Positions 3,787 to 64,000 of a DNA stretch of 64,000 bases are shown here, in pieces. The stretch is taken from the NCBI GenBank assembly GCA_000146465.1, contig CP001949.1; one strand, written 5' to 3'. A model generated the notes under the pieces. That model saw only the letters and a program-made list of their open reading frames with translations, was not told where the DNA came from and searched no databases. The translations under genes and the position numbers were made by a program. The stretch's first letter is position 1, and every line of letters starts with the position of its first letter.

Positions 3787-5466
3787 ATGAATGAAGTTGA
3801 AAGCAACAATCACACTCCTCTTCATCCAGATATTCCCACAGAGGACCAGATAGAAGAGGAAGCTAACAGCAGGCGAGGGATTCTTCGATATTTCAGGGTA
3901 GCAAAAGTAGAGTACACAAAATTCACTGTTTTGGGATTGATGTTTGGAATAATTGGTTTCATATACTCGTTCATGAGGATTCTTAAGGACATGTTTGTGA
4001 TGGTGAGACAGGAGCCTACAACAATACTGTTCATCAAGATCTTTTACATTCTTCCTGTTTCCATGGCCCTTGTGTTCCTCATACAATATATGCTGGGGAC
4101 AAAGACGGTGTCGCGAATCTTCTCCATCTTTTGCGGGGGATTTGCATCTCTGTTCTTTTTCTGTGGTGTTGTGTTTCTGATTGAGGAGCAAGTTGCTCCT
4201 TCCAAGTTTCTCTTCCGTGACATGTTTGTTGACGGGAAGATGTCCACTAGAGGCCTCAATGTCTTCAAATCGATGTTTCTGACCTTAAATGAGCCTCTTG
4301 CCACAATCGTCTTCATCTCGGCCGAGATGTGGGGAAGCCTTGTCCTGTCCTATCTTTTCCTGAGTTTTCTGAATGAATCGTGCACAATCAAACAGTTTTC
4401 GAGGTTTATTCCCCCTCTCATAATCATCACAAACGTGTCGTTGTTTCTTTCTGCAACAGTGGCTGGAGCCTTTTTCAAGCTTCGAGAAAAACTAGCCTAC
4501 CAACAAAATCAGTTTCTACTCTCGGGAATATTCATCTCCCAAGGCCTTCTTGTGGTCTTGGTGATCTTCCTGAAGATATATCTTGAGAGAGTGGCAATGA
4601 AAAAGCCCTTGTTCATCGTCTCCTCCGGATCAAGAAGAAAGAAAGCTAAGCCCAACGTGTCTTTTTCAGAGGGCCTTGAGATCATGTCGCAGTCAAAGTT
4701 ACTTCTTGCCATGTCTCTCATTGTCTTGTTCTTCAACATTTCCTACAACATGATCGAGTCTACATTCAAAGTCGGAGTTAAGGTTGCTGCAGAATACTTC
4801 AATGAAGAGAAGGGCAAGTACTCCGGAAAGTTCAATAGAATTGACCAGTATCTTACCTCGACAGTGGTCATATGTCTCAACTTGTCGCCCTTTTCAAGCT
4901 ATGTTGAGACAAGAGGATTTCTTCTTGTTGGGGTCATAACGCCGATTGTGACGCTTCTGGCCATTACTCTTTTCTTGGGGTCTTCACTTTACAACACCAG
5001 TATGGAAGAGTCTGGAATTGGAATTGTAAATAGCCTCTTTCCAAGAGGAAAGCCACTTTACATTCTTGAAAATTACTCCGGGATAATCTTCATGTCCTTG
5101 CTGAAGATCACAAAGTACTCTGCATTTGACATCTGTAAGGAGAAGCTTGGGATGAGAATCAATCCCACATACCGGGCAAGATTCAAGAGTGTGTACGATG
5201 GGATCTTTGGAAAGCTTGGGAAATCAATAGGATCCATATATGGATTACTGATGTTCGAAGCCTTAGACACCGAGGACCTTAGAAAGGCAACACCCATAAC
5301 TGTGGGAATCATCTTCATCTTTGTTGTTATGTGGATAAAAGCAATCATCTATCTGTCAAGATCCTATGATTCTGCAGTACTACACAATAGAGACGTCGAC
5401 ATCGATATGACTGAGAAGGCCAAGAAAAGTATGGAAACATCCGAGCCTTCAAAAGCTGTAGATTAA
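3787..5466 (+). CDS. NTT: TLC-type ATP/ADP nucleotide transporter (NTT)
   Basis: 559 aa with about 12 predicted TM helices. The hydrophobic/charged layout and overall similarity match plastid/Chlamydia/Rickettsia-type nucleotide translocases, as found in microsporidia. ATG confirmed. Confidence 0.7.
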   Translation: MNEVESNNHTPLHPDIPTEDQIEEEANSRRGILRYFRVAKVEYTKFTVLGLMFGIIGFIYSFMRILKDMFVMVRQEPTTILFIKIFYILPVSMALVFLIQYMLGTKTVSRIFSIFCGGFASLFFFCGVVFLIEEQVAPSKFLFRDMFVDGKMSTRGLNVFKSMFLTLNEPLATIVFISAEMWGSLVLSYLFLSFLNESCTIKQFSRFIPPLIIITNVSLFLSATVAGAFFKLREKLAYQQNQFLLSGIFISQGLLVVLVIFLKIYLERVAMKKPLFIVSSGSRRKKAKPNVSFSEGLEIMSQSKLLLAMSLIVLFFNISYNMIESTFKVGVKVAAEYFNEEKGKYSGKFNRIDQYLTSTVVICLNLSPFSSYVETRGFLLVGVITPIVTLLAITLFLGSSLYNTSMEESGIGIVNSLFPRGKPLYILENYSGIIFMSLLKITKYSAFDICKEKLGMRINPTYRARFKSVYDGIFGKLGKSIGSIYGLLMFEALDTEDLRKATPITVGIIFIFVVMWIKAIIYLSRSYDSAVLHNRDVDIDMTEKAKKSMETSEPSKAVD

Positions 5467-29767: not shown

Positions 29768-31336
29768 TTATTTCTTCTCAAGGAACACAGAAGGTACCGG
29801 CATTCCATCGACAATAAGGTGGCATATGTATCTAGCAAAGCTTTCATCTGCACAGTCATTAAGAAACAATTCTATGCCTTCGTCGTTGGAATAGCTAAGC
29901 TTTTCTATCTTACAATAGGGACCCATCATGGAAGAAAGATATACCCACTTGTCTGTGTCGAGGAGTTCCTTGTTCAACTTTGCAAGGTAGAATGTGACAA
30001 GGGGATAGATGTACACAAGGCAGGAGAATATGGACTCTATAGCCGGGCGAGGGCCCTTATCAATGGAGATAAGCTTGATGCAGGCATCATGAAATCTATC
30101 TAAAAACCCAGCATCTATAAGCATAGAGAACTTGGACTGGTCTTTGATTGCTGATGAGAGAAATATTGTAAGGGAAATCAAGAGAGGTATATGATCCGGG
30201 TTTCCAAAGAACAGGTCTATAAGTGTGAAATAAACTTCTTTTTGGAATATCTCATCCATAAGGAGATCCAGCTGTCCCACCATTAGTCTTATGTAGAGGA
30301 CTAGCTTGGAGTCCACTCTTTTGAATTCGGGAACTTCTAGCTTAGGGCATCTCCGAGAACAATTTAGGATCTCAATTATGTCGTATATTTGCTTGAATTC
30401 CGAATACGACTCCTCTTTAAGGAACATAGAAATGAGCTTTTCTCCCCCAGACACTATCTCGTCGTGGAAGAAATCTTCTTCATCGCTGGACATCGACCCG
30501 CTGTCGTCGCCTATCCAGTCTGCAAGAAGCAACATCTTTAATGCAACATAACACTTTCTTTCGATAAGGACAGACACAGGACGTGAGTCCTTCAGCAGCA
30601 TGGCCAGCTTCTGCATGTTAAGGCCCTTCAGCCCAAGCAGAATCGAAAAGAGATTCAATGCCGGTTCAAACCAAAGTAAACCCAGAAAGGAGTTGACAAA
30701 GCGACCATCAAGAGCCTCTGTCATGTAATGGGGATGGATCCGAAAGTGAAAAGCTAGAACCTCAAAAAAGTATGCAAGAACCTTTGACGTGGAGTTGAAA
30801 ACAAAATATTCCAAATCTTCCTCATCTCCGAAGTATTCGCTGATTTCGAAATTTCTGAGAATTTCCCTTGTCTTTGTTCTATCATCTGAATCTTCTGTAT
30901 CCGAAGTGTTTTCCCGGAATTCTCCAACAGATCCAAATAAAGCATCCTTGCTTCTTCTTATCCATTCCTCTTTCGTCATAGGATACACGCATTCGGAAGA
31001 GCATCCCAAGGAACGGCTCGAGGCATCTTCAATTGAGAGATCTCCTCTATTCCCCTCGTCCCCACCAGAGCCATTGCTTCCAAAGTCAATTATCCGTATG
31101 AAAACACTCATCTTCTGATAGAACGCAAAGTTGAATCGGCTATTTTCTGTGCATAAGCATTCGCTAACAAGAGCAATGTCTCGGAAATAGCAGAAGTTAA
31201 ACACAAGATAGTCCAAGTGGTAGATCATGTAATTTGTAATCATTGGCTTTTTAAGCTTGAACTGTGTTAAAGATCTTTGGAGAATGTTATGGAATCGCTT
31301 CTGGTCCACGTCAGGATACATCGAACTATTCCCCAT
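29768..31336 (-). CDS. Hypothetical protein (about 522 aa)
   Basis: Long ORF. Start moved from the track's GTG to the first ATG (MGNSSMYPD...). No motif recognised. Confidence 0.45.
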   Translation of the reverse strand: MGNSSMYPDVDQKRFHNILQRSLTQFKLKKPMITNYMIYHLDYLVFNFCYFRDIALVSECLCTENSRFNFAFYQKMSVFIRIIDFGSNGSGGDEGNRGDLSIEDASSRSLGCSSECVYPMTKEEWIRRSKDALFGSVGEFRENTSDTEDSDDRTKTREILRNFEISEYFGDEEDLEYFVFNSTSKVLAYFFEVLAFHFRIHPHYMTEALDGRFVNSFLGLLWFEPALNLFSILLGLKGLNMQKLAMLLKDSRPVSVLIERKCYVALKMLLLADWIGDDSGSMSSDEEDFFHDEIVSGGEKLISMFLKEESYSEFKQIYDIIEILNCSRRCPKLEVPEFKRVDSKLVLYIRLMVGQLDLLMDEIFQKEVYFTLIDLFFGNPDHIPLLISLTIFLSSAIKDQSKFSMLIDAGFLDRFHDACIKLISIDKGPRPAIESIFSCLVYIYPLVTFYLAKLNKELLDTDKWVYLSSMMGPYCKIEKLSYSNDEGIELFLNDCADESFARYICHLIVDGMPVPSVFLEKK

Positions 31337-31381
31337 CAATTCCAAATTTGATGGGCTTTTCCTTCTCACAATAAAACATAA

Positions 31382-32053
31382 CTAGCATATCTCTTCATCT
31401 TCGGGCTCTTCTCTTCTTAATATCAAATATCTTACCTTCTCTTCTTCACATATTTCCTTGAACTTAGGGAAGCACTCGCTTCTTATAATCACGTAGCCAT
31501 CATGCACTTCTCCATTCCTCCTAGCAAACTCCATAATCTTATCATTTCCTCCAACACTGACTCTTATTCCAACCCTTTCAAATCCTATCTTCTCCAGCTT
31601 GCTCAGTATCTCTTGGGACTGCTTCTTACTATTTCCGATGTATATGTTGTGCACTTTGTTTATCGCCTCCCTCAAAGAAGCCTCATTAAGATGCCTTCCC
31701 CCTCTAGTCACTTTGTTCCGAAGAAACTCAATAATCTCCCGCTCCGTCTTTTCTTGCTCGTAAGCCCTAGTCACTTCACTCTTCTGTTCGTGTCCACTAT
31801 TCAATATTTCAAGAACTATCTCTTCGTGCGTCTTATTAAATAAGTCCAGATCCGCTTGCTTAGCTATCTCTCCCTTTGACACACTCCGATAAATCGTATC
31901 CGTAAGAAGAATCTCGCTCAAAGGTGTTGCCATTCCATTTCTATATTCGTAAAGCTTGTTGGGGTAAACTCCTAGTTCATACTTCCTCCCAAACTTTCTA
32001 AGAGCAATGACACTAACATTCACCAGCTTCTTTTGGTTCAGCGGTGTGAACAT
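31382..32053 (-). CDS. SDO1: Ribosome maturation protein SBDS/SDO1
   Basis: MFTPLNQKKLVNVSVIALRKFGRKYELGVYPNKL matches the SBDS N-terminus ([34 protein letters not shown]). Start moved from the track's GTG to ATG. Confidence 0.85.
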   Translation of the reverse strand: MFTPLNQKKLVNVSVIALRKFGRKYELGVYPNKLYEYRNGMATPLSEILLTDTIYRSVSKGEIAKQADLDLFNKTHEEIVLEILNSGHEQKSEVTRAYEQEKTEREIIEFLRNKVTRGGRHLNEASLREAINKVHNIYIGNSKKQSQEILSKLEKIGFERVGIRVSVGGNDKIMEFARRNGEVHDGYVIIRSECFPKFKEICEEEKVRYLILRREEPEDEEIC

Positions 32054-32141
32054 CGTGGGCAGAGGGTCGCCCAGACACAAAACTTTAGAAAAACTAAACA
32101 CTGAAAAGCTTTATCAAGAGAGGAATCTTCCAAACCAAGAT

Positions 32142-33233
32142 CTAAGTAAACATATCTATGACTTCCTTAGCATTGAGCCTCTTTTTGTAGTTCATGTCAA
32201 GCATCAGCTTGCATACTCGGTCAAGTTTGACTCCTCGAAAGTCGTTTCTTCGAAGCCTCATCCAGTTGTCTCCGCTCTTCGGAAGAATGATCTCGGCAAT
32301 AACTTCCAAGTATATCAATCCAAGACTATATATATCACTAGCTTTTGTACATACATCCTGCAGCACCTCCGGTGCCATATACCGCTTGTCTCCATCGTCA
32401 TCTATGTCTTCTCCTTCGTATCTGCTTATGTTGAAGTCGGAGATCTTGAATACAAACGACCCAGGATCCGTGGGAAACATACATTGGCATCTTTCCGGGC
32501 ACTTCTCCCTCGAAATAACACTCTTCATCAGGATATTCTCTGGCTTTAGGTCGAGATGCACTATTCCACATGAATGAATCACTTCCAATCCGCTTGCTAG
32601 CTCGTACATCATCTTCTTTGTTATCCCGGGAGAAAACTTGGACTTTCTGAGAAAATATACCTCATGAATATAATCCCTTAGAGTCCCAATATTACAATAC
32701 TCTAACTCTATAAATAGATATCCCCTGCTCTCCCAGAAGTCATAGTACTTGACCACGTATTCCGACTCGATTCCCTTCAGCATCTCTATCTCCCTCATTC
32801 TGTTTTTTCTATCAAGCTCTCCGGAAATCCTTTTCTTGCTTTTCTTTACAATCGTGTAGTCGGTATCGTACACACAGAGTTTTCTACTTTTGTAAAGCAT
32901 CACCGGCTCCTCCAAATGATGATTTGCTTCTCCTCGCCCATCCCTCTGATTTACAAACACTTCGTAAAATGCCCCCTCTCCGGTTTTACAAATAAAGTTG
33001 CACGTGCTTTCTTTGCCTGTGTCAGAACCTGTGTCCTTGTCTGTGCATCCAAATACATCACACGAGGCTGGATCGTCGGTAGTTAGGGAAGAGTCTTGGA
33101 CATCTGTTACGAAAGGCATTGACGGTATAAACATATCTTTATATGGAATCCTTTTCGAAGGTGTCTTGGGAGAGCTAAACATTGCCTCTTCTCTTTCACG
33201 CTTCAGCATGTATATCTTCTTTAAATAGGTCAT
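32142..33233 (-). CDS. Protein kinase, Wee1-like
   Basis: HLDLKPENILM, ISDFNIS...EGDIDDDGDKRYMAPEVL (Wee1 has EGDxRYxAPE). Kinase core in the C-terminal two-thirds. Confidence 0.55.
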   Translation of the reverse strand: MTYLKKIYMLKREREEAMFSSPKTPSKRIPYKDMFIPSMPFVTDVQDSSLTTDDPASCDVFGCTDKDTGSDTGKESTCNFICKTGEGAFYEVFVNQRDGRGEANHHLEEPVMLYKSRKLCVYDTDYTIVKKSKKRISGELDRKNRMREIEMLKGIESEYVVKYYDFWESRGYLFIELEYCNIGTLRDYIHEVYFLRKSKFSPGITKKMMYELASGLEVIHSCGIVHLDLKPENILMKSVISREKCPERCQCMFPTDPGSFVFKISDFNISRYEGEDIDDDGDKRYMAPEVLQDVCTKASDIYSLGLIYLEVIAEIILPKSGDNWMRLRRNDFRGVKLDRVCKLMLDMNYKKRLNAKEVIDMFT

Positions 33234-33360
33234 CCTAGGTTACTCAGGGCTAATTCATTTGGTAACGAAATAACCATCCTAGCGCCACCAGGGAATTAGC
33301 AAAATTTTCTGTCGATACAACTTTGAACAAACGCACAATAACTTTAATGGCCTGATAACA

Positions 33361-34287
33361 TCACCTGTTAGGCTTTCTATAGCTGTAAGGAACCTTTCCA
33401 TACTCAAAATCCTCTTCGATAAACTCCTCATCTCCCGAGCCTCTACCTCCAATCTGTCTATCACCCAATGCTTCAGAGCTATGGATCCATGCCCCATCCC
33501 CTGTCTTTTGTACTGTCCTGCCATAAGCTCCTGTAAACGAAGATGGACTATCTTGGATATCAAACTCGTCTTCTGGTTTGGAATATTTTCTGTTTATATT
33601 CTTTCCATATCCCCATTCATTCTTCTGTCTATACTCACTGTCCTTTCCCTTAGGATAGGGAGGCTCTCTTACAAATCCTCGTGGGTCTCTTTCTCCATAT
33701 CCCCCCTTATGCCCTCCATAGCTCCCTCTATCTCCAGCCTTGCTTCCTTGAGCCCATCCTGCCCTGGTGTTAGGCTCTCCAGAGCCCCATCCGTGCCCTT
33801 TGTCTCTATATCCCCTGTCCCCAGTAGAGTACTGCCGTGGAGATCCAGAAGATACTCCTGTCCAATTACCATCGCCTCTCCGAGAATCTTTCTGCAAAGA
33901 TCCCGCCCCTTGCTCCCTCATCTGCCTTATCGTGTTCAGCACCCTGCTTACATCAAACGGTGACATAAAGACATCAGGATTTTCTCTAGGATCCACATAT
34001 CTATTGGACACCGACTCAATTCGGGCATCACTTTCGAGAAAATCCATTTCCGCACACAGAGTCATATAATTCCCTATCCAGAAATTATCAAGAACCTCTT
34101 TCATGTCTCCGCACATCAGCGCGAACCGCACCTCTTCCGGCGAAATCTCCATCAGATCAAGCCCTCTGTAAGAGGAATAAATCCATTGAGGCGGATCTAC
34201 CAAAGAAGTGTACCGAACGTGGTCATACTTACACTTCGACCCAAACTTACACTTTCCCTCAATGAAGAAGCGGCATACATTCTTCAT
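33361..34287 (-). CDS. CCCH zinc-finger protein with Gly/Arg/Tyr/Trp-rich low-complexity tail (Nup42-like architecture)
   Basis: N-terminal CRFFIEGKCKFGSKCKYDH (C-x8-C-x5-C-x3-H), then repeated GWG/GYG/RG motifs over about 200 aa. Confidence 0.5.
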   Translation of the reverse strand: MKNVCRFFIEGKCKFGSKCKYDHVRYTSLVDPPQWIYSSYRGLDLMEISPEEVRFALMCGDMKEVLDNFWIGNYMTLCAEMDFLESDARIESVSNRYVDPRENPDVFMSPFDVSRVLNTIRQMREQGAGSLQKDSRRGDGNWTGVSSGSPRQYSTGDRGYRDKGHGWGSGEPNTRAGWAQGSKAGDRGSYGGHKGGYGERDPRGFVREPPYPKGKDSEYRQKNEWGYGKNINRKYSKPEDEFDIQDSPSSFTGAYGRTVQKTGDGAWIHSSEALGDRQIGGRGSGDEEFIEEDFEYGKVPYSYRKPNR

Positions 34288-34442
34288 CTCTGCGTTAGGT
34301 TATAAGGGGTCTTTGTTTTTTGCCTAAATACTCCACCTCAGCTCTCTTCTTAAGGGAGGCCCCTAAATGACGTTTGCAAAATCAACCGAGGAGACAAAAT
34401 ACTTTATTAATTTATATCACCTCCATCAAAGGTTACAGAAAG

Positions 34443-35558
34443 CTACTCATCTCGCACATCCTCTCCAACATTAATACTCTTGATGTACATATCTATTTCC
34501 TCTACAACATGGTCCGGAATCGTTCTCATGTCCACTTCGATCTCATCGTTCTCCACAAACTCCCCGGCTCCATTCTTCAGAACTATCTTTGCAACGCTTT
34601 CGGTTTGGTCCTTACTCATGTTCAATATAGCATTTCCAATACTAACCCTCTCACTCAACGAGTAAGCTCTGCTTGCAGACGTCTCTCCAGTCTGCTCAGC
34701 TAGCTTCGATTCAAGCATCCTAATCTCCCGAGTGTAGGACATGATCTTTCGTTTCAACTCAGATATCCTGCCCTTGATGTCGCCAGGTGGAGATTTCTGC
34801 ATATGAGCCTTCACTGCCTTTTCAAACTCTTGCCCACATTCATATACCTCCGTCCCAGGCGCATTGAATTTCTTACAATTCTCCACAATAAGCTCAAGAT
34901 CCCTTTCAAACTCATCTGTACTCTGGTATTTTCTTTGTTCCAGCTTGATTCTTATAGTCTGCATATCCATGGGCTCCTTAATTATAGAATAGTATCCAGG
35001 AACAAGTTCTGCATCAACAGGCTCTAGAAATGGCCAGTTGTATGCCTTGTGCTTAGGCCTCATTAGATCTGCAAGCACCTCCGAACAGAACTCATAGTCC
35101 TCCGTCTTCATCCCTCCATCAACTGGCTTTACACTCCTTTTTGGTTGTTTCGGCCTTCCTGAAACAGGTGTCTCTGTCTTCTTCCGCTTCTTGGGGACTT
35201 CCTGGGGCATTCCCTCCATCAGCCCGTTATACACCGTCTCAAGTGCCTTTCCCATGTCGTGGACAACAGTTCCAGGAGGATTATATGTATAGCAGTTGTT
35301 GAACATCAGCTTCATATCTCCATCAAAGCCCTCCACTCCTTCATATTCCTTGTGATCCAATTTCTTTCTAATAGTAGACAAATCCATGGGATGCTTTATC
35401 TTTTCCGGATAATCAGGAATCCCCAGCTTCACAGGATCCACAGGCTCTAGAAATGGAGGTGCATTCGAATTCCGCTTAAGCCTGGTCAGTATCTGCGAGC
35501 AATACTTGAGCTGGTACTCAATCAAGATATTCCCAGAGTTTACTTCGTCTTCCTCCAT
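34443..35558 (-). CDS. BDF1: BET-family double-bromodomain protein (BDF1-like)
   Basis: Two bromodomains (PFLEPVDPVKLGIPDYPEKIKHPMDLSTIRKKL...NCYTYN and WPFLEPVDAELVPGYYSIIKEPMDMQTIRIKL...NCKKFN) plus a C-terminal ET-like region. Confidence 0.85.
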   Translation of the reverse strand: MEEDEVNSGNILIEYQLKYCSQILTRLKRNSNAPPFLEPVDPVKLGIPDYPEKIKHPMDLSTIRKKLDHKEYEGVEGFDGDMKLMFNNCYTYNPPGTVVHDMGKALETVYNGLMEGMPQEVPKKRKKTETPVSGRPKQPKRSVKPVDGGMKTEDYEFCSEVLADLMRPKHKAYNWPFLEPVDAELVPGYYSIIKEPMDMQTIRIKLEQRKYQSTDEFERDLELIVENCKKFNAPGTEVYECGQEFEKAVKAHMQKSPPGDIKGRISELKRKIMSYTREIRMLESKLAEQTGETSASRAYSLSERVSIGNAILNMSKDQTESVAKIVLKNGAGEFVENDEIEVDMRTIPDHVVEEIDMYIKSINVGEDVRDE

Positions 35559-35756
35559 TCTTTTCAGGGGGTAAGAAAAATTTTAAAAACAAAAATATCT
35601 TATCCTGTGTATTATACTATAAGAACCATACCTTATACTTCCAGATCTACACCTTGTTACAGCTATAATCTTGGAATCGCCTACTTCGCATCCTTCCTCA
35701 TCACATTAGACGGTATAGGGAAGCCCTTCTAATAACAGATGATTTAGAACCTACCA

Positions 35757-36713
35757 TCAGCTAGTGGTAGTAGTAGCGCTAGAGGAGGTGGAGGTTAGTA
35801 ACTTTTTGATCTCATCCTTGTTTGGCCCAGAAATATATGAGGAAAATGATAGGAGAGATATAAAAATAATAGGAAACAAAGTTAGGTTTTTGTTTCCAGA
35901 ATACCGGAAAAATGGCACCATGTATTGCAATATGGTGGTTGACACTCTAAGTATAACAAAAGTGGGTGTAAGGGTTTTCTTCATGTAGCTGGATCCTCCT
36001 CGAATGAATCCCCAAATAATAAAAATTAACATAAAAACTACCTCCGGAAGAGTAATTACAGGCATTTTAGAAAACGGTTCCTTATCTGCTCCATGTAGTT
36101 CCTTTCCTGAATCTTCAAATATGATCACAACGCCTGCACTGTTTGAGTATGTTTCACGCCTTTGGAAGCCGACAATATACTCATATCCCTGCCGAAAGAG
36201 ATTATAAAGGGAATACAGGAGAGATAGAAGACTGTATAATCCTGAAGAGCAGAACAAACTTTTGGCGATGGCCCCGAAGTCCTGATTATCGCTAGGAAGT
36301 GAAGTTATGTTTATCCAGATCGAAGATATCATGACAGAAATTGCAAAAATCATCAGAAAAATTCCAAAGAAATCTATAACTTCATTTATCTTGTTCCCAA
36401 TCAAAGCTCTACGAAACCTCTCTAACCATCTGATTATTCTTGATTCGGATGCTTTCTTTCTTGTCTTTATTAGGTAGGTTGTAGGAATTTTGTGAAGCCC
36501 ATCTACTACTCCCATTGCAATCAAGATACATGAAACATACTTGAACAATTCACTTTTTATAGGATCATAAGAATGTATTAAACAAATGATTCCTACGAAT
36601 GAATATAGGAAGCATTCCAGGAAGTTTAGGGCTATAGATGCCATGTATCGGAAATCTTCTAATTTTTTCCCTGCTAATTTGATCATCGAGGAAATCTTTT
36701 TCTCTATATCCAT
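35757..36713 (-). CDS. Multi-pass membrane protein, hypothetical
   Basis: At least 6 hydrophobic helices. Start moved from the track's TTG to ATG (MDIEKK...). Confidence 0.4.
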   Translation of the reverse strand: MDIEKKISSMIKLAGKKLEDFRYMASIALNFLECFLYSFVGIICLIHSYDPIKSELFKYVSCILIAMGVVDGLHKIPTTYLIKTRKKASESRIIRWLERFRRALIGNKINEVIDFFGIFLMIFAISVMISSIWINITSLPSDNQDFGAIAKSLFCSSGLYSLLSLLYSLYNLFRQGYEYIVGFQRRETYSNSAGVVIIFEDSGKELHGADKEPFSKMPVITLPEVVFMLIFIIWGFIRGGSSYMKKTLTPTFVILRVSTTILQYMVPFFRYSGNKNLTLFPIIFISLLSFSSYISGPNKDEIKKLLTSTSSSATTTTS

Positions 36714-49373: not shown

Positions 49374-50117
49374 CTAAATATCTTTTTCTACCAGACTTGT
49401 CTTCAAAATCCTCATGTAAAACACAATCCCTTCTCTTCCTATCTCCTCCGGATGAGGAGTAACCTCATATTTATCTATGGAAATTCTCTTCTTAAACATA
49501 GGACAGTCAAGTATTATGCTTTCGTATTCTCCTCCTTCTCCACAGAAGTTCACTTCCAGACCCTGGACCGCCTCCAGACGGTCATAAATTTCATCAAGTC
49601 CCATGTTTATACATTCTCTTCCTAAGAGAGACGATGCAACCTTCACTATTCTTCCCTCCATCCCATTAGATATCATCTCCCCAAGTAGCTTCTTCTGATC
49701 CATTTCCCAGAGAGGAGACAGACACCTAAGAGACAACCTTTTACACACATCCTCAACTCTGTTCTTTTGGTATTTGGACAAAATAGCCCCAGAAGATACG
49801 CCTTCGAAGTATATCTTTTCTTTTGCCGAGGCAATGGCTTCATAAAGATCTTCAACTTCATCACCTTCTTCCTTTTTATATTGAAGATTCTGATTTATAC
49901 TCTTGCATTTCGTCTCGTAAATAAAAATAGGAATCCCGAGACATTCTCCAAGCAGATCGGCCACCTCGGATCCAACAGTTTGGTACATAAAAGAATCTTG
50001 ATATCCATCTCCGCATCTCATGTGAAGCAGGCCTACAACCTGATGCCCTTCGCGCTGAAGAACATGCATAGCATATAGACTGTCCTTCCCCCCACTGGCC
50101 AGTGCAAGGTATTTCAT
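49374..50117 (-). CDS. DPH6: Diphthine-ammonia ligase DPH6 (ATP-binding PP-loop domain)
   Basis: MKYLALASGGKDSLYAMHVLQREGHQVVGLLHMR matches the DPH6 N-terminus (MKVVALISGGKDSCYNMM...GHQIVALANL). SGGKDS PP-loop. Start moved from the track's GTG to ATG. Confidence 0.75.
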   Translation of the reverse strand: MKYLALASGGKDSLYAMHVLQREGHQVVGLLHMRCGDGYQDSFMYQTVGSEVADLLGECLGIPIFIYETKCKSINQNLQYKKEEGDEVEDLYEAIASAKEKIYFEGVSSGAILSKYQKNRVEDVCKRLSLRCLSPLWEMDQKKLLGEMISNGMEGRIVKVASSLLGRECINMGLDEIYDRLEAVQGLEVNFCGEGGEYESIILDCPMFKKRISIDKYEVTPHPEEIGREGIVFYMRILKTSLVEKDI

Positions 50118-50174
50118 CTTTCGAGGATTAAAAATTTCCCAAGTAAAGAGAAGCAATTCAAGCACAATTACTCT

Positions 50175-51479
50175 CTAATGATCTTTAATTTTTCTGATCA
50201 TTTCTTCAGCCTCCTCAGGCATGTCGATCCCCTTTGAATAGTAAAACAAAGTTTCCTCTTTGTCGGTGGACAATATGGGATCAAACACCTTCCATAAAAG
50301 TTCTACCTCGTCTAAGTTCACACTGTTAAGACTTTTGTTCCTTATAAGACTGTCAAAAATGATTTCATAATCTCGGTATCCCCCGTAACTCTCATGCATC
50401 AAATCGTTGATTCTTTTTTTATCATGCAGAACATGCTTGACGGAATCTCCTCCAACAAGAACCTCGAGAAACACCTCGCACTCTGGATAGATGTTGAACA
50501 CCAGCCTTACCACATCTATCTCGTTGATATGAACAGTTTTGTTAGAAAGCTTCTTTTCCTCGCAGAAAAGCTCAATGCATTTTGAAAATACATCTCTTTT
50601 AAACTCAATAGATATCTCAGTTCTCTTTTCATTCATCCCTTTTCCTGCGACAATGATAAAGGGAACTTTAGACCATCGAGGAGTGTTTACATTGATAGGA
50701 ACTATACAGAATGTCTCAGTGCTCGAATCCTTGTGGATCTCCTTGCTATAGTCATCGTATTGGCCATAAATACACTTCTCCGCATCAATAGTACATGCAT
50801 CAAAGATCTTGGCCCTTTCTAACGCTTCCATAGTCCTCGATGGTTCTGTAACGTCCGATGCAACAACCCCAAGAAGTTCGGCCATGTGGTTCTGAACTAT
50901 ATCCTTTACGATTCCGTTTTTGTCAAAGTAATTCCTTCCCTCCCCTCCAAGAACCTCCTTGGAAATTATCTCAACACTTTTGACATGCCTATTATTCATC
51001 GTCTCCTTCATAGCACTTGACCCCCTTATAATTCCTGGCATTGCTATGACCAATGGTTTCAGAAGATAGTGGTCGATAAACTGAACCTTGCTTAGGTCAA
51101 ACTTTTTCATCTGTGCAAAAGACTCGATGCTCTCTCCATATGGCTTTTCGATACATATTACCTTGTACTTAAGCTTCGAAGCCTCCTTAAGTATACTGGT
51201 GTACACAGAAGGTGGCACAGAAAAGTAAAGCACTGTTTCTGGGTCGGCTATATCTTTAAGCCTCGAAAGGTCGTCATAGGATCCCCTGACGTATTGAACC
51301 TTCGAAAGGAACTCCGGAGAGTAATTCCCAACCTCTTGAAGAACTTCGGAGTATTCAACATCATACTTGGTTCTTGCATATCCAACAACTTCAACATCCT
51401 TGAGATTTATCCTGGAAAGCGCAGGAAAAAGTTTTCTTTTTGCAAGGTCGCCACTGGATCCAAAGATAACGACCTTCAT
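50175..51479 (-). CDS. ZWF1: Glucose-6-phosphate 1-dehydrogenase
   Basis: MKVVIFGSSGDLAKRKLFPALS (GASGDLAKKKxYPAL NADP site) and IDHYLLKPLV (RIDHYLGKE substrate motif). 434 aa. Confidence 0.9.
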   Translation of the reverse strand: MKVVIFGSSGDLAKRKLFPALSRINLKDVEVVGYARTKYDVEYSEVLQEVGNYSPEFLSKVQYVRGSYDDLSRLKDIADPETVLYFSVPPSVYTSILKEASKLKYKVICIEKPYGESIESFAQMKKFDLSKVQFIDHYLLKPLVIAMPGIIRGSSAMKETMNNRHVKSVEIISKEVLGGEGRNYFDKNGIVKDIVQNHMAELLGVVASDVTEPSRTMEALERAKIFDACTIDAEKCIYGQYDDYSKEIHKDSSTETFCIVPINVNTPRWSKVPFIIVAGKGMNEKRTEISIEFKRDVFSKCIELFCEEKKLSNKTVHINEIDVVRLVFNIYPECEVFLEVLVGGDSVKHVLHDKKRINDLMHESYGGYRDYEIIFDSLIRNKSLNSVNLDEVELLWKVFDPILSTDKEETLFYYSKGIDMPEEAEEMIRKIKDH

Positions 51480-51592
51480 TGGGGCACTCTGTCTTATGCT
51501 TAAATAATATTTTTTGTAATCCCAAAGTAATCAATAAGATTTCTGCAATTGCCTTAAGTCAATTTTCCGTCAATTAGAGAGAAGAAGAGTGA

Positions 51593-52225
51593 CTAATAAA
51601 TAACGCTGGAAGCAGAATCCGTTTCTTTTCTCTTCAGAATCCTAACAAAATCCACCTCGACAATTTTCTTGTCCTTCTTGTGGAAATCATGTCTTCTTGG
51701 AAGTTCATACTTAATCTTTGCCAAAACCTCGGCACTTGGATATCTCGCAACTATATATTCTCTAGTGCTTGTCTTATGGAGGGAATATACAACGTCACAG
51801 AGTTCTAAGGCCTTGTCAACAGCCTTTATGTCGGCATGTTTTATCTTTGTGCCAAATGGAGGATTGATTACTGCTGTGTCAAACTTCTCATTGATGAAGG
51901 TAAGATCGTCTATAGAGCACCTTAAAAGATCTACATTAGCTTTAAACTTAAGATTGTTCTGTTTGAATACCGACAGAGCCAAAGGACATAAGTCAACTCC
52001 AAGGATGTATGATGGTGAGAAGTAGCTGCAAGCAAAAGATAGCATTCCGGTCCCACAGCATAGGTCCAAAATGGACTTTCCCTCAATGTCATCATATGTA
52101 GAGTGGATGATGCTAATCATGGATGCGGCTATGTCTGGTGGCGTCATATATTGCTCTAGTCCAACACTCATTTTGGAAAAATCTTCAACTTTGGAAAGCT
52201 CCATCTTTAATTTCTTGACTTTCAT
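51593..52225 (-). CDS. METTL5-like N6-adenine rRNA methyltransferase
   Basis: LEQYMTPPDIAASM (EQYPTPP), DLCCGTGMLS (SAM motif I), INPPFGTK (motif IV NPPF). Start moved from the track's TTG to ATG (MKVKKLK...). Confidence 0.7.
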   Translation of the reverse strand: MKVKKLKMELSKVEDFSKMSVGLEQYMTPPDIAASMISIIHSTYDDIEGKSILDLCCGTGMLSFACSYFSPSYILGVDLCPLALSVFKQNNLKFKANVDLLRCSIDDLTFINEKFDTAVINPPFGTKIKHADIKAVDKALELCDVVYSLHKTSTREYIVARYPSAEVLAKIKYELPRRHDFHKKDKKIVEVDFVRILKRKETDSASSVIY

Positions 52226-52278
52226 GCAAAGTACAGAACACGGGGCATTCATACAGCGATGGTTTGGCTGTGGCAAAA

Positions 52279-52351
52279 AGCCACCACTGGGATTCGAACC
52301 CAGGACCCTTAGCTTACAAAGCTAAAGCTCTACCTACTGAGCTATAATGGC
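52279..52351 (-). tRNA. tRNA-Thr (anticodon UGU)
   Basis: The minus-strand 73-nt sequence GCCATTATAGCTCAGTAGGTAGAGCTTTAGCTTTGTAAGCTAAGGGTCCTGGGTTCGAATCCCAGTGGTGGCT folds as a cloverleaf. Acceptor stem 7 bp (two G-U pairs), D stem GCTC/GAGC, anticodon stem TTAGC/GCTAA with loop TTTGTAA (U33, anticodon TGT, A37), T stem CTGGG/CCCAG with T loop TTCGAAT. No encoded CCA. Confidence 0.85.
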
Positions 52352-52450
52352 TCGCTCTCTAAGGAAAATACACACATCCTGGGTAGAGATGCTCCATTAA
52401 AAGAAGCTGCATCATCAAGTGCAAGCTTTAAAAAGGATTCAACAAAAATT

Positions 52451-53140
52451 TTACTCTTTGTTAAAGTCGTTGACATCATAGGACCCCACCTTGGTCCATC
52501 CTTCCTCATTCATGTAGTAAAGGTTGATGAATCCTCCAGAAAAGGCGTCTCGATGGGCTGCATGGAAAATAGCCTCCTTTCCCAAGTTCAAGGCTTCTTC
52601 CTTACTCATGTCGAACCTATAGCATGAAGAAAGAATTCCATAAGCTATTGTGGATCCGCTTCCTACAGAGAACAAGTTGCCCTTAATTCTTTTTCCAGCG
52701 TCGTCAACATAAAAAATACATGGCTCACTTCCGTCATATCCACAGAGCATAGTCCCCATCGAGAGACCATACCCCTTGTATTTGTATACACAGTTGCTTA
52801 GGTACATGCTTGCTGCAGACACTGTTATTCTTCTTCCGTTTGTGAGCTCATAGTTCTTTGCATACAGACCCACAAGCTTTTCCCAGTAAAAGCAGTCTGC
52901 TGCTCCTCCAGCCATCGTTCCAAGCAAGTTCTTGTTTATCTCAATTACCTTCTTTACGGTCTGAGAAGCTATATATGGCCCAGATGTTGCCCTCGAGTCC
53001 ACCGCAATGACCATTCCCTCTTTAAACACAAAGGCAAGAGTCGTTGTTCCATAGTACGGCTTTATAAAAGACTTGATTAGCTGCTGATCAATGCAGGTGG
53101 TATCAATTCTTCTGATGTCTCTCTTCAATGTTTCTTCCAT
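52451..53140 (-). CDS. 20S proteasome beta-type subunit (beta5/PRE2-like, with propeptide)
   Basis: The mature N-terminus [24 protein letters not shown] carries the catalytic Thr1 signature. Start moved from the track's TTG to ATG (MEETLKRD...). Confidence 0.8.
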
Positions 53141-53155
53141 CCAAGGGGTTTCAAA

Positions 53156-55549
53156 ATGCGAGAAGGAGATAGTATGGTCAATTATAAAGAAAGCCCCGAG
53201 AGAATGGAGGATTTGAAAGAAAAGATCTTTCAATTTGGAATATATGGAGCAAAGCTGGAAAAACTGAGTAAAGACGAAGTAGAAATCGCTATTGGAGAAC
53301 CGTGGGTGGAAATACTAAAAGTCGAAACAATAGAAAATCTGAAAAGAAACTTCATCACCGATTGCTTGAGAACAGAAACGAATGGATATATGGTAGATAA
53401 CTTCCACTGGGACAAGCTGTATGTAAGAATGGGGACACTTGCCTGGAAGGATTATCTAACTGCTGGGACATTTAATTTCACATCGAAAGAGTACTTTCTA
53501 ATAATGAGTCTTCTTATAGAGACCAAGAAGTATGTGGACAATGTGGAGCTCAGGAAGTTGCGGCTTGATCCCAAGAAAACCCACTACTGCATTAAAAGGC
53601 TTGTGAGAAAAGGATTTATAGAATACAGAACATCCGAAGAAACAGAGAAAAAAAACTTTATATACAAAATTAAGGCAATTCTGGATGAAAGAGGATTTAT
53701 AACGCGGAAAGTAGCACAACCATTAACAGACTCGGGGCGGATTGATGTGGTTGGAAGAAGACGCCTGTTTGAATACCGAATCGAAATTGGACTATACGAC
53801 AACGTTCGGGAAATGATCTTGAGCTCTGAGGGAGGAATAATTACAAAGGACTTAAAAGACAAGCTTGGAGTTAGCTCAAAAATAGGATACAAGCTTCTCA
53901 ATAAGATCTACAACGAAGAAAAGGGGATTTTCAAAAGGATTGAGGAATTCCAGGGCCGTATTAGGAGATACAGATACCATGCGGCTTGCAAAGAGCTTTC
54001 CTACCAAGTCCCTGAGGAAGCCGGAACTGTAGAATATATAACCTCGGAAGAAAGAGTAAGAGCTATCAAAAAGCTTATGTCCATGAGTTCTGTTCTTCAG
54101 CTTGATAAGCAGACCTATGAAAAACTTCAGGAGATAACAGGATGGAAATACGAGTTCGACAGAAGAACCATAATCAGATCGGCTATACTTGCAGGGTTTA
54201 AGATATACAAGCAAAAGAAGGGAAGGGAAGGAAAGTGCAGCAGATATATGATAATAAGAAACGAGGTCTCTGAATCGGATATTGAGGCCTTGGATGTGCC
54301 AAGCAATGTCATCCAAGAAGACATGTCCGAATTCCAAAGAAAGATATACAACATCTTTGTTAATTCACCAAAGCTTGTGGAGATGGACAACGGATACATT
54401 CCTCAGAGGGAGGAAAGACTACAGCTGTTCTATAGGTTTCTTGTGGAATATATGGCCTTCCAAGGAGTAAAATCGCTAAGATTTGACTGGGAGGTGGTAA
54501 AAGAAATGGAATTTAGCCTTTTGCTATCGATAGTTCCCTTCGGCAGAATTGGATTCCGAGAGTCTCTCTGCCAATTCATAGACTCAGGAGAGACAGATAG
54601 TAATGCGTTCAGAGCAAAAGAATGCATTTTATCTGGAAAGGCAGAACCTTCAAACATCACTTCTCTTGCCGGAAAGAGGGTCTCCGATGTTGTTGATATG
54701 AAGCTACCCCAGAGCATAAGAAAGCTTATCAGATTAAAAATAGGAGTAGGAAACTTTGTATCCTTACTCAAGCAGATGAAAGACCTCCAAGTTCTCGACA
54801 TTGAGATATCAAGCAAGAAGATAATGATAAAAGAAAACTCCATGGATCTCTCTTCGGGGATAAGGGCTTTTGAGAGGGTAAAGAGATCCAAGAGCAGTGG
54901 AAAGTATGTTTCCCTGGAAAAGAGGCTTGAATTCTACAAAAAGATACGCAATGTCGAGGAGAAGAGATTCTATGACGAGGCATACAGAACCATCTACACG
55001 GAATTCAAGGGCGATGAGTTTGAGGCTATGTTTGATAGATTGAAAATGTTCGGAGATGAAGGGATAGATGATATAAAGCAAACCTCGTTGGAAAGACTGT
55101 ATATAGAATTCAAGAAAAACATAATCGAACTAGGATGGATAGGAGCACTAGATTTCAATTCATACTCCGTTTCGGAAGCCAAAAAAGTACTAAAAGCACT
55201 TTCTCGAGACAAGATAATAGCAAACTATAAGGGCATAAAGAAAGTGGAGTTTGTCACGCCGCACGAGAGCTTTCTCCGGGTAATTAACAAGAAGTACGAT
55301 GTGTTCAAGTTCAAAGGATATAATCAGTACAAAGGAACGGGGTACTTCTCGCATTACTTTGATCTAGTCTATTACACCTTAGCAACATCTGGATCCTTGG
55401 AAGTTACCGAATTAATTTCTCGTGTCAGATTCATAGCTGATTTCGAGATGGAAATGTTTCTTTCTGAGTATAAAAAAGTTTTTAAGGTCTCTAATGTCAA
55501 TAATACCAGAATTATCTCTCTCGGCATATTCATGGATCCGTTTGAATAG
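53156..55549 (+). CDS. Large hypothetical protein (797 aa), possibly winged-helix DNA-binding / transcription-factor subunit
   Basis: ATG 15 bp from the divergent proteasome gene. Repeated short helical modules. I could not assign a family. Confidence 0.45.
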
Positions 55550-55719
55550 AGTTAGTTCTTTTCTTTTTCAAGTCTAAGAAGTTAAGATTCCGATAAAATA
55601 AAAAAGTACACCATGTTTTACCACCTTTATTTGTAACTTTTGTTTTTTGTTTCCTTGTCACGTTTACTTATCATATAGACTGGATTTTCTATAAAATAAA
55701 TTTTTCCCTTTATCTTTTT

Positions 55720-55944
55720 TCAGTCCTCGTTTCCTTCGCCAGAGCCTCCACCTCCTTCCTTTATCATCTCATCCTTCAGCTGGTTAGCTCCTTGAACAAC
55801 TTGTTCAGCTTTTTCACTCACAGCTTGATTAAAAAGAGGCCGAAGTAAATTTCTAGTAGGATCCCCTCCTCCAGAAGCACTAATCTTCCCAAGCATGCGT
55901 ATGGAAACCAAAAACGAGCTCAATCCTATTTTTCCAAGCTTCAT
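55720..55944 (-). CDS. Small hypothetical protein (74 aa), Gly-rich C-terminus
   Basis: The only ATG ORF in a roughly 500-bp AT-rich spacer upstream of midasin. Weak. Confidence 0.2.
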   Translation of the reverse strand: MKLGKIGLSSFLVSIRMLGKISASGGGDPTRNLLRPLFNQAVSEKAEQVVQGANQLKDEMIKEGGGGSGEGNED

Positions 55945-56090
55945 GTTACTCTAGAGATTTTGATCTTATATACTTTTTCGTCTCCTTTTTCCTCCTTTCT
56001 CCTTGGTTTTATTGGAGTGGATTTGGATTGTAAAGGAGAGCTGCTTTCGAAGGATTGAAGAAGGAAAGAACAGGAGGTGGAGTTCAAAAC

Positions 56091-56495
56091 ATGATGTTTT
56101 TAACGATATTTGTATTTTGGATAATAGTCGGTAGCTCGAACGCTGACGAGGAGCTGAAGGAGTTTATAAAAAAGTCTATAAAAGAAGAAGTTACGAAGGA
56201 GATGTATGAAATTGTGGAAAAGACCACAAAAGATATGAAGGAAGATATGGAAAAGAAGATTGACGAATTTATGTCAGAAAAAATCCCGGAGCACGAGGAA
56301 AAGGTTGTGTTAGAGGAGGAAAAGGTTGTATTAGAGGAGGGGCAGGATTTGGAAGAGGAAGAAGAGTCTTCTGCAATGACTATTTTGAAGAAGGCTGGGG
56401 AAGCCCTTGCCATTGTAGTTATATGCATATTGATTGTGTTTTTGGTCTCAAAGATTTTGGAATACTACCGAAGGTTAAAGGACTGCTCTGAATGA
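56091..56495 (+). CDS. Type-I membrane protein, Glu/Lys-rich ectodomain (134 aa)
   Basis: Signal peptide MMFLTIFVFWIIVGSSNA, acidic coiled region with a duplicated HEEKVVLEEEKVVLEE, and a C-terminal TM helix ALAIVVICILIVFLV. Confidence 0.45.
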   Translation: MMFLTIFVFWIIVGSSNADEELKEFIKKSIKEEVTKEMYEIVEKTTKDMKEDMEKKIDEFMSEKIPEHEEKVVLEEEKVVLEEGQDLEEEEESSAMTILKKAGEALAIVVICILIVFLVSKILEYYRRLKDCSE

Positions 56496-56585
56496 CAGTT
56501 GCGGAAGCCAAAACTATATCAACCTCAATAAATAAAGACTCTAAAATTTTGTCTGTTATGATTTTGGATTTTATCTAGGGGTGAG

Positions 56586-59500
56586 ATGAAACATAAGAAG
56601 CAAAAAACGGGCGAGGCCAGAGTTGGATCGTTAGAGAAGTTTGAAAGACTAGCCCGAGAAGCTGTAGATCTCAAGGTTCCGGTTGGAGTGTATGGGGAGG
56701 TTGGAAGATCCTCATTGGTAAGTAGGCTTCATTCAGGGATTTATAGCAAAGGTGGACGGTTGGTTGAGATTGATTCTCGAGAAATAACTGATGCAAGAAC
56801 ATTAGGAGGTTTCTATGCAGTCAAGGAAGGAGATGTTGAGTACATGAAGGGATTACTGATTGAGTCTATGGAGAGAGGAGATTGGGTTTTGTTCAAAAGA
56901 ATTGATAAGAACCATGGGCTGATGCAATATCTTTTTACGGTAGTAAAGTACAGAAGGCTGCTGGGAAACGATGGGAGGGAGGTTCTTGCACATGAAGATT
57001 TTAGGATATTCTTTACTTCCAATGATATATTGGATATGGATGACATTGTGTTTGTAGGGCCACTTGGGTTTATGTTTGAAGAAGCAATGATGATGTTTGA
57101 GATAGCATGTGTTAGACAGCTTCTTATGAAAGTTTTCGAAGTTATTTCTACTCACTGGAAGGGGTGTTCGAAGGAGAAAGGAGAGGAATGCCAGAGAAGT
57201 TGCCTTAAAATTGCATGCAAGAACAACGGATGGTGTTTGTTTAAGGAATCCACAGTTTGTGGAGCCCATTTCCGATCTCTCCAGAGAATTAAGAAGAGAC
57301 TTGAAGGCAGTAACGGAACTAAAACAGAGGAGCGAGTAAAGGTATATCAATCAGTATGCAATGTATTGCTTAGACACGATTCGGATTCTTTAAGATATCT
57401 TCTTGCATTGACTGATATTCCAGATATTTCACTTCATGGATTAGACTTTGCTAAAACTAGTTCTGTTGAATGGGGCATCTTCAATCTTCTATGGAACATT
57501 AAAAACAGAGACCACACCTTATTAATTGGAGATACAGGGGTGGGAAAGACCTCAATGATTCAGTATCTCAGCTCGAAGTCCCATTTCTTCTTGGGAGTAG
57601 CGACCAAGTTAAGGGTTGTAAACATGTCGGCAGACTTTGATGGAACGGATTTAATTGGAGGATATGGGACTCTAGACATCAACAAGGCTATAGAGAGGAT
57701 ATGTAATCAGGAACGGCTAAGCACACCAGTCTGTTATGGAAACAAAGAGAAGCTCGAATATCTGAGGGAGAAGCTTTCTCTTCGAAAAGAAGATGGGTTA
57801 AAACATGAAGGGGCTATCAAAAAGATTGATGATCTTCTCAAACTACTAGAAAAAAAGGTGCATTTTGTCTATAAAAAGGGAATTCTTACAGAATGTATGG
57901 AAAACGGAGAATGGCTGCTTCTTGATGAAATCAACCTTTCCTCTGAAGAGACACTTGACCTGATAGACGGGGTCTTGGGTAAGAAGGAAATACTCCTCTA
58001 CGAAAGTGGAGACTTGAGGCCACTTGAAATTCATCCGGGATTTATGCTATTTGGATGTATGAATCCTGGGGGAGATTTTGGAAAGAAGAAGTATGAGGGG
58101 GTTGAATTTAATAGCGTGCATATTCATGATTTCAGTACTTCGTTGAAGGATATTAATCTTGTGATTCATTCTGTGCTTAAGTATGAGATCTCCGAAGAAA
58201 GAAAGAGCAAGATAGGGGAATTCTTTTTGGAATTGAAGAACAAGGTTAGAAAGGGAGAGCTTGGGAATATAGTTGAGCCCTTGATAAGCGGAAGAAGCCT
58301 TGTTCGAGTTTTAAACTTTATCAGAAGAAGAGCAGAGAAGGGGTTTGAGCAGTCTGTATGGGAGGGATTTGATTTGTTTGTGTTCACACAGCTGGACTTT
58401 GTTAGCCGTTCTATTGCAATTTCTCTCCTGTCGAAGTACTTTGCAACCCAATCCTTGAGTGTTGAAAGGACAAAAGTTAAAGATGGATTTGTTCTAACAC
58501 ACAGGATTCAAACATATCTGAGAATAATGGAGCTAGGGGTTCTATCTAACTGCCCATTGCTTCTACAGGGGGATACATCTACAGGGAAGACAAGCATGGT
58601 TTTGTTTCTATCCAAGGAGATGAATAAGCGTGTTATCAGGATAAACAACCACGAACATACGGAGGCTTCTGATTACATTGGTAGCTTTACTTGCACCAGC
58701 AGAGGAGTTGAATTTCAAGAAGGAGTTCTTGTGACAGCAATGAGAAGAGGATATTGGGTTATTCTTGACGAACTAAATCTTGCATCTAGTGATGTACTTG
58801 AGGTGTTGAACAGACTTTTAGATGACAATAAGCAGATATACATTCCTGAAATAGATGAGGTTGTTGTTCCTCATGAAAACTTCCGAGTGTTCGCTACGCA
58901 GAACATAGGGTATGGAGGTAGAAAAGGATTGAGCAAAGCATTTAGAAATCGGTTTGTTGAAATGTTTTTCAATGAAGGAGGGGAAGAAGAGATACTAGAG
59001 ATTCTTCATGGAGGATCGGGGCTTCCTAAGAGCTTCTGTAAGAAGATGGTTGAAGTTTATAGTGGACTTAGATCGAAAAGAAGTGTTAATGCTCTAGTGA
59101 CCCTTCGAGATCTTTTCAAGTGGTCTGGAAGAGTGCCCAGAAGCTTAAGCGAGGTATGTTTTCTAGGAATGAGTATAATATATGAAAGACAAAGAGAAGA
59201 AAAAGACAGAAGATGGGTATTCCAGGTTTTTTCTGAGTCTTTCGGGGAAGTAGAAGTGGAAAGGTATGGAAGGATTATCACAGGAAAAGAAGATAAGGAA
59301 GAGATAGTAATTGGTAAAAAGGGAACCAACTTGAAGGATTTATCCCTAGCAGCCGAAGAACTTTATGGAAAGAAGCTCGTGTTTACCGATACATTCAGGA
59401 AAATGATTAGTCTGACGGTTCTAGCATGGGAAAGTAAAGAACCAATTTTGATTGTTGGAGAGACTGGAATAGGGAAGACAAAAATATGCGATGTGGTCAG

Positions 59501-64000: not shown

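Follow-up and report, generated by a model that had tools for sequence, protein, structure and literature searches.

A reduced midasin gene runs off the edge of a 64-kb window of the Encephalitozoon intestinalis genome

What lies at the end of a 64,000-nucleotide (nt) stretch of contig CP001949.1 (assembly GCA_000146465.1; hereafter the window, meaning that stretch at its full length), in a region where a list of plus-strand open reading frames (ORFs) of at least 60 amino acids (aa) falls silent? The last plus-strand entry in that list spans 56055-56495 and none follows it to the window end, as a first-pass annotation made from the letters alone had remarked; the same annotation proposed that a gene for midasin, a large ribosome-assembly ATPase, stood there unlisted. 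Translation, homology searches and comparison of assemblies lead to the same answer: with a probability of roughly 0.97, positions 56586-64000 hold the 5' 88% of a single-exon midasin gene (the MDN1/Rea1/Mdn1 orthologue) of Encephalitozoon intestinalis ATCC 50506, a microsporidian parasite (taxid 876142). With the same confidence, its product is a reduced midasin comprising a six-membered AAA+ ring, an alpha-helical region in the position of the linker, an acidic tether rich in aspartate and glutamate (D/E) and a C-terminal MIDAS domain. As ADM12117.1, with the UniRef name 'Midasin', the gene has been annotated before; its modest comparative interest lies in asking which parts of a large and essential ribosome-assembly motor are indispensable.

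Answering the question begins with the reading frame. From ATG 56586 the plus strand reads through 2471 stop-free codons to base 64000, with two bases remaining, in agreement with the more than 2470 open codons first claimed; an in-frame stop, which the first-pass annotation had named as the sign that it was wrong, is present nowhere between these positions. On the 5' side the frame is closed by an in-frame TGA at 56559-56561, and ATG 56586 is the first ATG past it. Local base frequencies (A 0.32, C 0.14, G 0.26, T 0.28) give a stop probability of 0.075 per codon and a probability of approximately 1e-83 for 2471 codons without a stop, and the remaining five frames of 56586-64000 carry 60-229 stops each, with a longest open run of 177 codons. 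At three times the length of the next-longest open frame, this is, as had been supposed, the largest gene in the window. That the ORF track lacks it is due to the way ORFs are listed and not to biology: those continuing past either end of the source are left out by rule, much as the annotation had surmised in describing the track as restricted to stop-terminated ORFs, and because the window ends before the stop codon the unterminated midasin frame was dropped. The lesson for method is that tracks built solely from stop-terminated ORFs conceal every gene cut by a window edge, here even the largest one.

The identity of the product follows from protein searches. Among 5.8 billion proteins searched, ADM12117.1 (2818 aa, E. 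intestinalis ATCC 50506) was 100% identical to the translation along the entire query, such that the window carries codons 1-2471 of 2818 before its edge cuts the gene; the N-terminus of the deposited protein, MKHKKQKTGE, corresponds to a start at ATG 56586, and three KAL accessions are further deposits of the identical protein. Orthologues fall away in identity from E. romaleae (74%), E. hellem and E. cuniculi (both 73%) to Ordospora (56-57%) and other microsporidia (31-43%), several of the last being labelled midasin. When the window translation was searched against the PDB with phmmer, the leading matches were Mdn1 of Schizosaccharomyces pombe (6or5, 1e-187) and Rea1 of Saccharomyces cerevisiae (5jcs, 6hyp, 6i26 and 6i27, approximately 1e-184); with the full 2818-aa protein as query, the top midasins reached 5e-198 and 1.3e-196. 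The next family after the midasins comprised single-module proteins of the NorQ/CbbQ/CobS type, at 1e-13 to 1e-21. Pfam placed AAA_5 (3.4e-109) in five stretches and recognised two midasin lids, PF17865 (AAA_lid_5, 4.5e-14, aa 522-620) and PF17867 (AAA_lid_7, 2.2e-09, aa 802-887), both with scores exceeding the curated cut-offs. The assignment to midasin made from architecture alone is thus borne out by structure ranking, lids and the deposited name, and the protein search that had been recommended returned midasins as its best matches, not another AAA+ family such as dynein.

The remainder of the gene lies outside the window and was recovered from a second record of the same species. The midasin locus occupies 212122-220578 of CP075165.1 (GCA_024399295.1, a 247-kb record), against which window positions 50586-64000 show 0 mismatches in 13,415 nt. 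Past the window edge the gene continues in CP075165.1 for 1044 nt, that is, 347 codons plus a TAA stop, the first of these codons beginning in the last two bases of the window. A further E. intestinalis assembly (JBLUPK010000019.1) differs solely at window position 58850, the third position of codon 755, and the proteins are identical. Extension beyond 64000, which the annotation had expected to reveal a MIDAS domain and a stop codon, therefore delivered both.

Six tandem AAA+ modules of AAA_5 type, each with a located P-loop position, are carried on this one polypeptide, all on the plus strand and with approximate module boundaries. AAA1 (aa 28-300, 56667-57485) opens with a degenerate P-loop, GEVGRSS (aa 37, 56694-56714), which falls two residues short of GxxGxGKT, with arginine for lysine; at its Walker B position (WVLFKRID, aa 100) the D-E pair is absent. 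AAA2 (57486-58505), which contains the lid PF17865, has the Walker A motif GDTGVGKTS (aa 315, 57528-57554) and the Walker B motif WLLLDE (aa 443, 57912-57929), 128 aa apart compared with approximately 62 aa in AAA3-5, a wider spacing that is consistent with a retained insert. AAA3 (58506-59390) contains PF17867 and carries GDTSTGKTS (aa 662, 58569-58595) and WVILDE (aa 724, 58755-58772); AAA4 (59391-60230) carries GETGIGKTK (aa 958, 59457-59483) and AFLIDE (aa 1020, 59643-59660); and AAA5 (60231-60905) carries GDPGIGKTS (aa 1236, 60291-60317) and WIILDE (aa 1298, 60477-60494). AAA6 (60906-61445) again has a degenerate P-loop, RGVGRDS (aa 1465, 60978-60998), and lacks the acidic pair at its Walker B position (IVVFTGVE, aa 1526, 61161-61184). 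The four canonical and two degenerate P-loops of the first-pass annotation were accordingly all found in place, RGVGRDS lying at 60978 (previously put at about 60975), and the Walker A lysine is missing from GEVGRSS and RGVGRDS only. The accompanying assertion that every P-loop is followed by an hhhhDE motif holds for AAA2-AAA5 and fails for AAA1 and AAA6.

These modules align in order with yeast Rea1: AAA1 (aa 28-144) with Rea1 306-427, AAA2 (386-619) with 770-1012, AAA3 into AAA4 (654-996) with 1075-1406, AAA4 (1004-1097) with 1472-1568, AAA5 (1189-1387) with 1699-1902, AAA6 (1448-1506) with 2037-2097, and the D/E-rich region plus MIDAS (2433-2725) with 4459-4764. This colinearity through AAA1-AAA6 and on into the D/E and MIDAS regions tells against a second way of reading the protein, namely as a VWA8-type or MoxR-type AAA ATPase bearing a von Willebrand A domain and unrelated to ribosome assembly. 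Such a reading draws on the NCBI product name of ADM12117.1, 'Willebrand factor type A domain-containing AAA ATPase', and on the resemblance of single AAA modules to NorQ, CbbQ and CobS of the MoxR class (1e-13 to 1e-21, as above); each of these matches spans a single module and falls more than 160 orders of magnitude short of the midasin scores, and UniRef applies the name 'Midasin' to the E. intestinalis protein and its E. cuniculi orthologue alike. A VWA8-type or MoxR-type ATPase is thus extremely improbable here.

Downstream of the ring and the linker-position region, the acidic tether begins at 63696 and continues to the window end at 64000 (plus strand): from aa 2371 onwards, D+E content reaches 30% or more in aa 2371-2543 and again in 2565-2608, and the region runs on past the window to approximately aa 2608. 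Within the window the last 71 residues are 45% D+E, in line with the earlier remark that the frame ends in a D/E-rich stretch. The tether is thus some 240 aa long in E. intestinalis, and the corresponding region of yeast midasin is several hundred residues long. With phmmer, the C-terminal 347 aa, taken from CP075165.1, could be aligned with the Mdn1 MIDAS domain (6or5 residues 4447-4565, 4e-20) and with that of Chaetomium thermophilum as solved by crystallography (6qt8, 2e-17). The DxSxS signature is present as DNSKS at aa 2672-2676, where FIDNSKSM stands in register with SIDDSKSM and CVDDSSSM.

The C-terminal MIDAS domain also bears on a third reading, in which the protein would belong to dynein heavy chain or to some other six-AAA motor resembling dynein (e.g. 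RNF213). Dynein heavy chain shares with midasin a ring of six concatenated AAA+ modules plus a linker, only some sites being catalytic, and secondary Pfam matches to dynein families were indeed returned (AAA_7 3.6e-17, AAA_6 1.3e-10, Dynein_heavy D6 1.4e-10). The two families, however, have separate origins through independent AAA fusions (PMC5100056), and they differ in their defining parts, dynein having a stalk and microtubule-binding domain where the E. intestinalis protein has MIDAS and a D/E tether. A stalk is absent from the protein, the P-loops at aa 958 and 1236 leaving no room for a coiled coil between AAA4 and AAA5. In the whole-protein PDB search no dynein heavy chain appeared at E<=0.001, against midasins at 1e-187, and the AAA6 segment by itself matched dynein 2 only at E 0.2-0.4; the lids are midasin-specific, and the close homologues are all midasins. 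Dynein heavy chain was rejected on the PDB ranking, the homologues and the C-terminal MIDAS domain, and we regard it as vanishingly improbable.

Having been placed among the midasins, the E. intestinalis protein proves to be a much-shortened one. Like S. cerevisiae Rea1 and S. pombe Mdn1, it strings six AAA+ modules together in a single chain, of which AAA2-AAA5 have canonical Walker A and Walker B motifs and AAA6 lacks Walker B, and it has midasin lids, a D/E tether and a C-terminal DxSxS MIDAS domain; it differs from them in length (2818 aa versus 4717-4910 aa), in its N-terminus and in the P-loops of AAA1 and AAA6, which are two residues shorter than those of Rea1/Mdn1 and without lysine. 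To place these differences, 21 midasins were aligned, 13 microsporidian and 8 from other eukaryotes (fungi and animals), and their motif columns compared. No Walker A or Walker B residue of AAA2-5 varies among the 21, and many further residues of the ring are likewise unchanged from microsporidia to animals. Ahead of the AAA1 P-loop, all 13 microsporidian sequences have 27-40 residues (36 in E. intestinalis), in contrast to 144-447 in fungi and animals. AAA1 begins at approximately aa 28 in E. intestinalis and aa 306 in yeast Rea1, and because aa 28-144 align to Rea1 306-427 the yeast N-terminal domain, of approximately 280 aa, has no counterpart in the E. intestinalis protein. In yeast this domain scaffolds the junction between ring and linker.

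The AAA1 P-loop carries a two-residue deletion in 13 of 13 microsporidia, reading G-x-x-G-[KR] rather than G-x-x-G-x-G-K-[TS], and an equivalent deletion affects AAA6, again in all 13; set against yeast, the E. intestinalis sequences are GEV--GRS versus GKAGSGKT in AAA1 and R--GVGRD versus GPSNSGKT in AAA6. The Walker B acidics of AAA1, hhhhEDhD in other eukaryotes, have become K-R or K-N. Length (2650-3070 aa in full-length microsporidian midasins, approximately 57% of yeast Rea1), architecture, loss of the N-terminal domain and both deletions are shared by the other Encephalitozoon, Ordospora and more distant microsporidian proteins. The former Walker lysine varies within this group: E. intestinalis has arginine at both sites, E. 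romaleae and E. hellem have lysine at both, and E. cuniculi has arginine in AAA1 and lysine in AAA6, with K, R, T or A at the AAA6 position among close relatives, even within Encephalitozoon and Ordospora. The first-pass annotation had taken the missing lysines to be what is expected of midasins in which only the central modules are catalytic. For the catalytic core of AAA2-5 that expectation stands, the Walker motifs of these modules being required in S. pombe (PMC5116814); it does not extend to AAA1 and AAA6, whose Walker A is conserved from yeast to human (Kawashima et al., PMC5116814). Owing to this conservation, together with the shared microsporidian deletions, we interpret the lysine loss as a microsporidian reduction and not a family trait, and on the alignment the departure of both P-loops is taken to be lineage-specific and not defining for orthology.

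Loss on this scale invites the suggestion that the reduced genome of this parasite retains midasin only as a relic, decaying or no longer functional. In its favour are the missing N-terminal domain, the broken P-loops of AAA1 and AAA6, a linker halved and unrecognisable, and the variable Walker-lysine position (K/R/T/A among close relatives), which points to relaxed constraint at these two sites. Against it, independent assemblies agree on an unbroken ORF of 2818 codons and differ by a single synonymous change, full-length orthologues of 2650-3070 aa persist in 13 microsporidian genera, AAA2-5 keep the same Walker A and B residues all the way to animals, as do many other positions of the ring, and the MIDAS DxSxS is retained. 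A relic is very unlikely on these grounds. There are roughly even odds that microsporidian midasins, that of E. intestinalis among them, are natural 'minimal' midasins running on four nucleotide sites only. The 13 compared all lack the N-terminal domain, carry both P-loop deletions, drift at the former Walker lysine and have a linker of about half the length known from yeast. If so, microsporidia would have dispensed with AAA6 nucleotide binding, unlike S. pombe, in which an AAA6 Walker A mutant does not complement and an AAA1 mutant does (PMC5116814). The AAA6 site would then be structural and dispensable, and a motor of 2.8 kiloresidues could prove easier for structural studies. A narrow literature search found no publication describing minimal four-site microsporidian midasins; on midasin in microsporidia or Encephalitozoon the literature yielded passing mentions only. 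The founding midasin paper reportedly included an analysis of the E. cuniculi protein.

Between ring and tether, the linker-position region (aa ~1621-2370, 61446-63695, plus strand) is predicted to be all-alpha, and its AlphaFold2 (AF2) model is a confident all-alpha fold with a predicted local distance difference test score (pLDDT) of 77. At some 750-775 aa it compares with approximately 1700 aa for the yeast linker (PMC11603028). Within the segment, D198, Y230-K231-Y232 and R264 are invariant in microsporidia.

Several observations weigh against reading the whole chain as a reduced midasin. Firstly, the N-terminal domain is absent and the P-loops of AAA1 and AAA6 are degenerate, though S. 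pombe needs the AAA6 Walker A (PMC5116814). Secondly, the linker-position region has no detectable similarity, in sequence or in fold, to the linker of yeast or animals: whole-protein phmmer found no PDB match within aa 1620-2383, no Pfam family matched the region, and a profile of the 13 microsporidian linkers (hmmsearch --max) gave no matches to the 8 non-microsporidian midasins or to reversed controls. Comparison by hhalign with a 3-sequence alignment of animal linkers returned a probability of 0.1%, the target profile being poor, as most non-microsporidian database sequences are incomplete, and Foldseek of the AF2 linker model against the PDB produced nothing at E<=0.001 and no midasin chain. 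Midasin linkers are in general poorly conserved (PMC11603028). Thirdly, no Pfam model, those for VWA included, matched the C-terminal 347 aa even at E<=1, so that MIDAS was recognised solely by direct phmmer against solved midasins. Finally, the literature search found no experimental data on a microsporidian midasin.

As for what the protein does, we infer biochemical activity, substrates and a pre-60S role in E. intestinalis only by homology with yeast Rea1. By that analogy the AAA ring would dock on nuclear pre-60S particles, the MIDAS domain would use a metal ion to bind assembly factors (in yeast Ytm1 and Rsa4) by their ubiquitin-like domains, and ATP hydrolysis in AAA2-AAA5 would remodel the linker and pull the assembly factors off, licensing 60S maturation and export. 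In yeast, the ring sits on the pre-60S particle with MIDAS bound to the ubiquitin-like domains of Ytm1 and Rsa4, and hydrolysis drives linker remodelling by which force is passed to MIDAS and the factors are stripped (PMC6920918; PMC11603028). Invariant Walker motifs in AAA2-5, the D/E tether and the MIDAS DxSxS are consistent with such a mechanism operating in microsporidia. Regulation may differ from that of the yeast motor, in view of the degeneration of AAA1 and AAA6 and the loss of the N-terminal domain.

The surroundings of the gene show the compact, intron-poor layout expected for Encephalitozoon, with approximately 90% of the window lying within open frames of at least 150 aa. Neighbours include genes for G6PD, a methyltransferase, a proteasome subunit and an HTH_micro protein, with ribosomal protein L23 downstream of midasin. 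In the 5' flank of the midasin start codon (56540-56585) a AAAATTTT element lies approximately 40 nt upstream and GGGG occupies -9 to -6; both are candidate signals, resembling the AAATTT-like and CCC/GGG-like signals found upstream of Encephalitozoon genes. A scan of 55500-56700 for bacterial promoters and terminators gave results at chance level, such bacterial models being irrelevant to a eukaryote. Immediately upstream, at 56094-56495 (plus strand), both public assemblies annotate a gene, an ORF of 133 aa whose product has an N-terminus resembling a signal peptide, carries the direct repeat EEKVVLEE in an acidic stretch and includes a hydrophobic segment at its C-terminal end. That this ORF might be a detached midasin N-terminus was considered and rejected, its features being those of a small membrane-type protein and no Pfam family matching it.

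Further upstream, the HTH_micro gene at 53204-55549 (plus strand) encodes a protein of 781 aa that matches Pfam HTH_micro (PF17007) at 6e-141. The short spacer between the methyltransferase and proteasome-subunit genes contains a tRNA-Thr (anticodon TGT; 52278-52352, minus strand), the sole tRNA and sole Rfam match in the 64-kb window. GC skew tends to track the coding strand across the window, with the clearest case at 56001-64000, running at +0.22 to +0.34 over the plus-strand midasin gene, where C makes up 14% of bases, and turning negative over blocks of minus-strand genes such as 30001-36000 and 46001-52000, a pattern that reflects transcription or coding-strand bias and not a replication signal.

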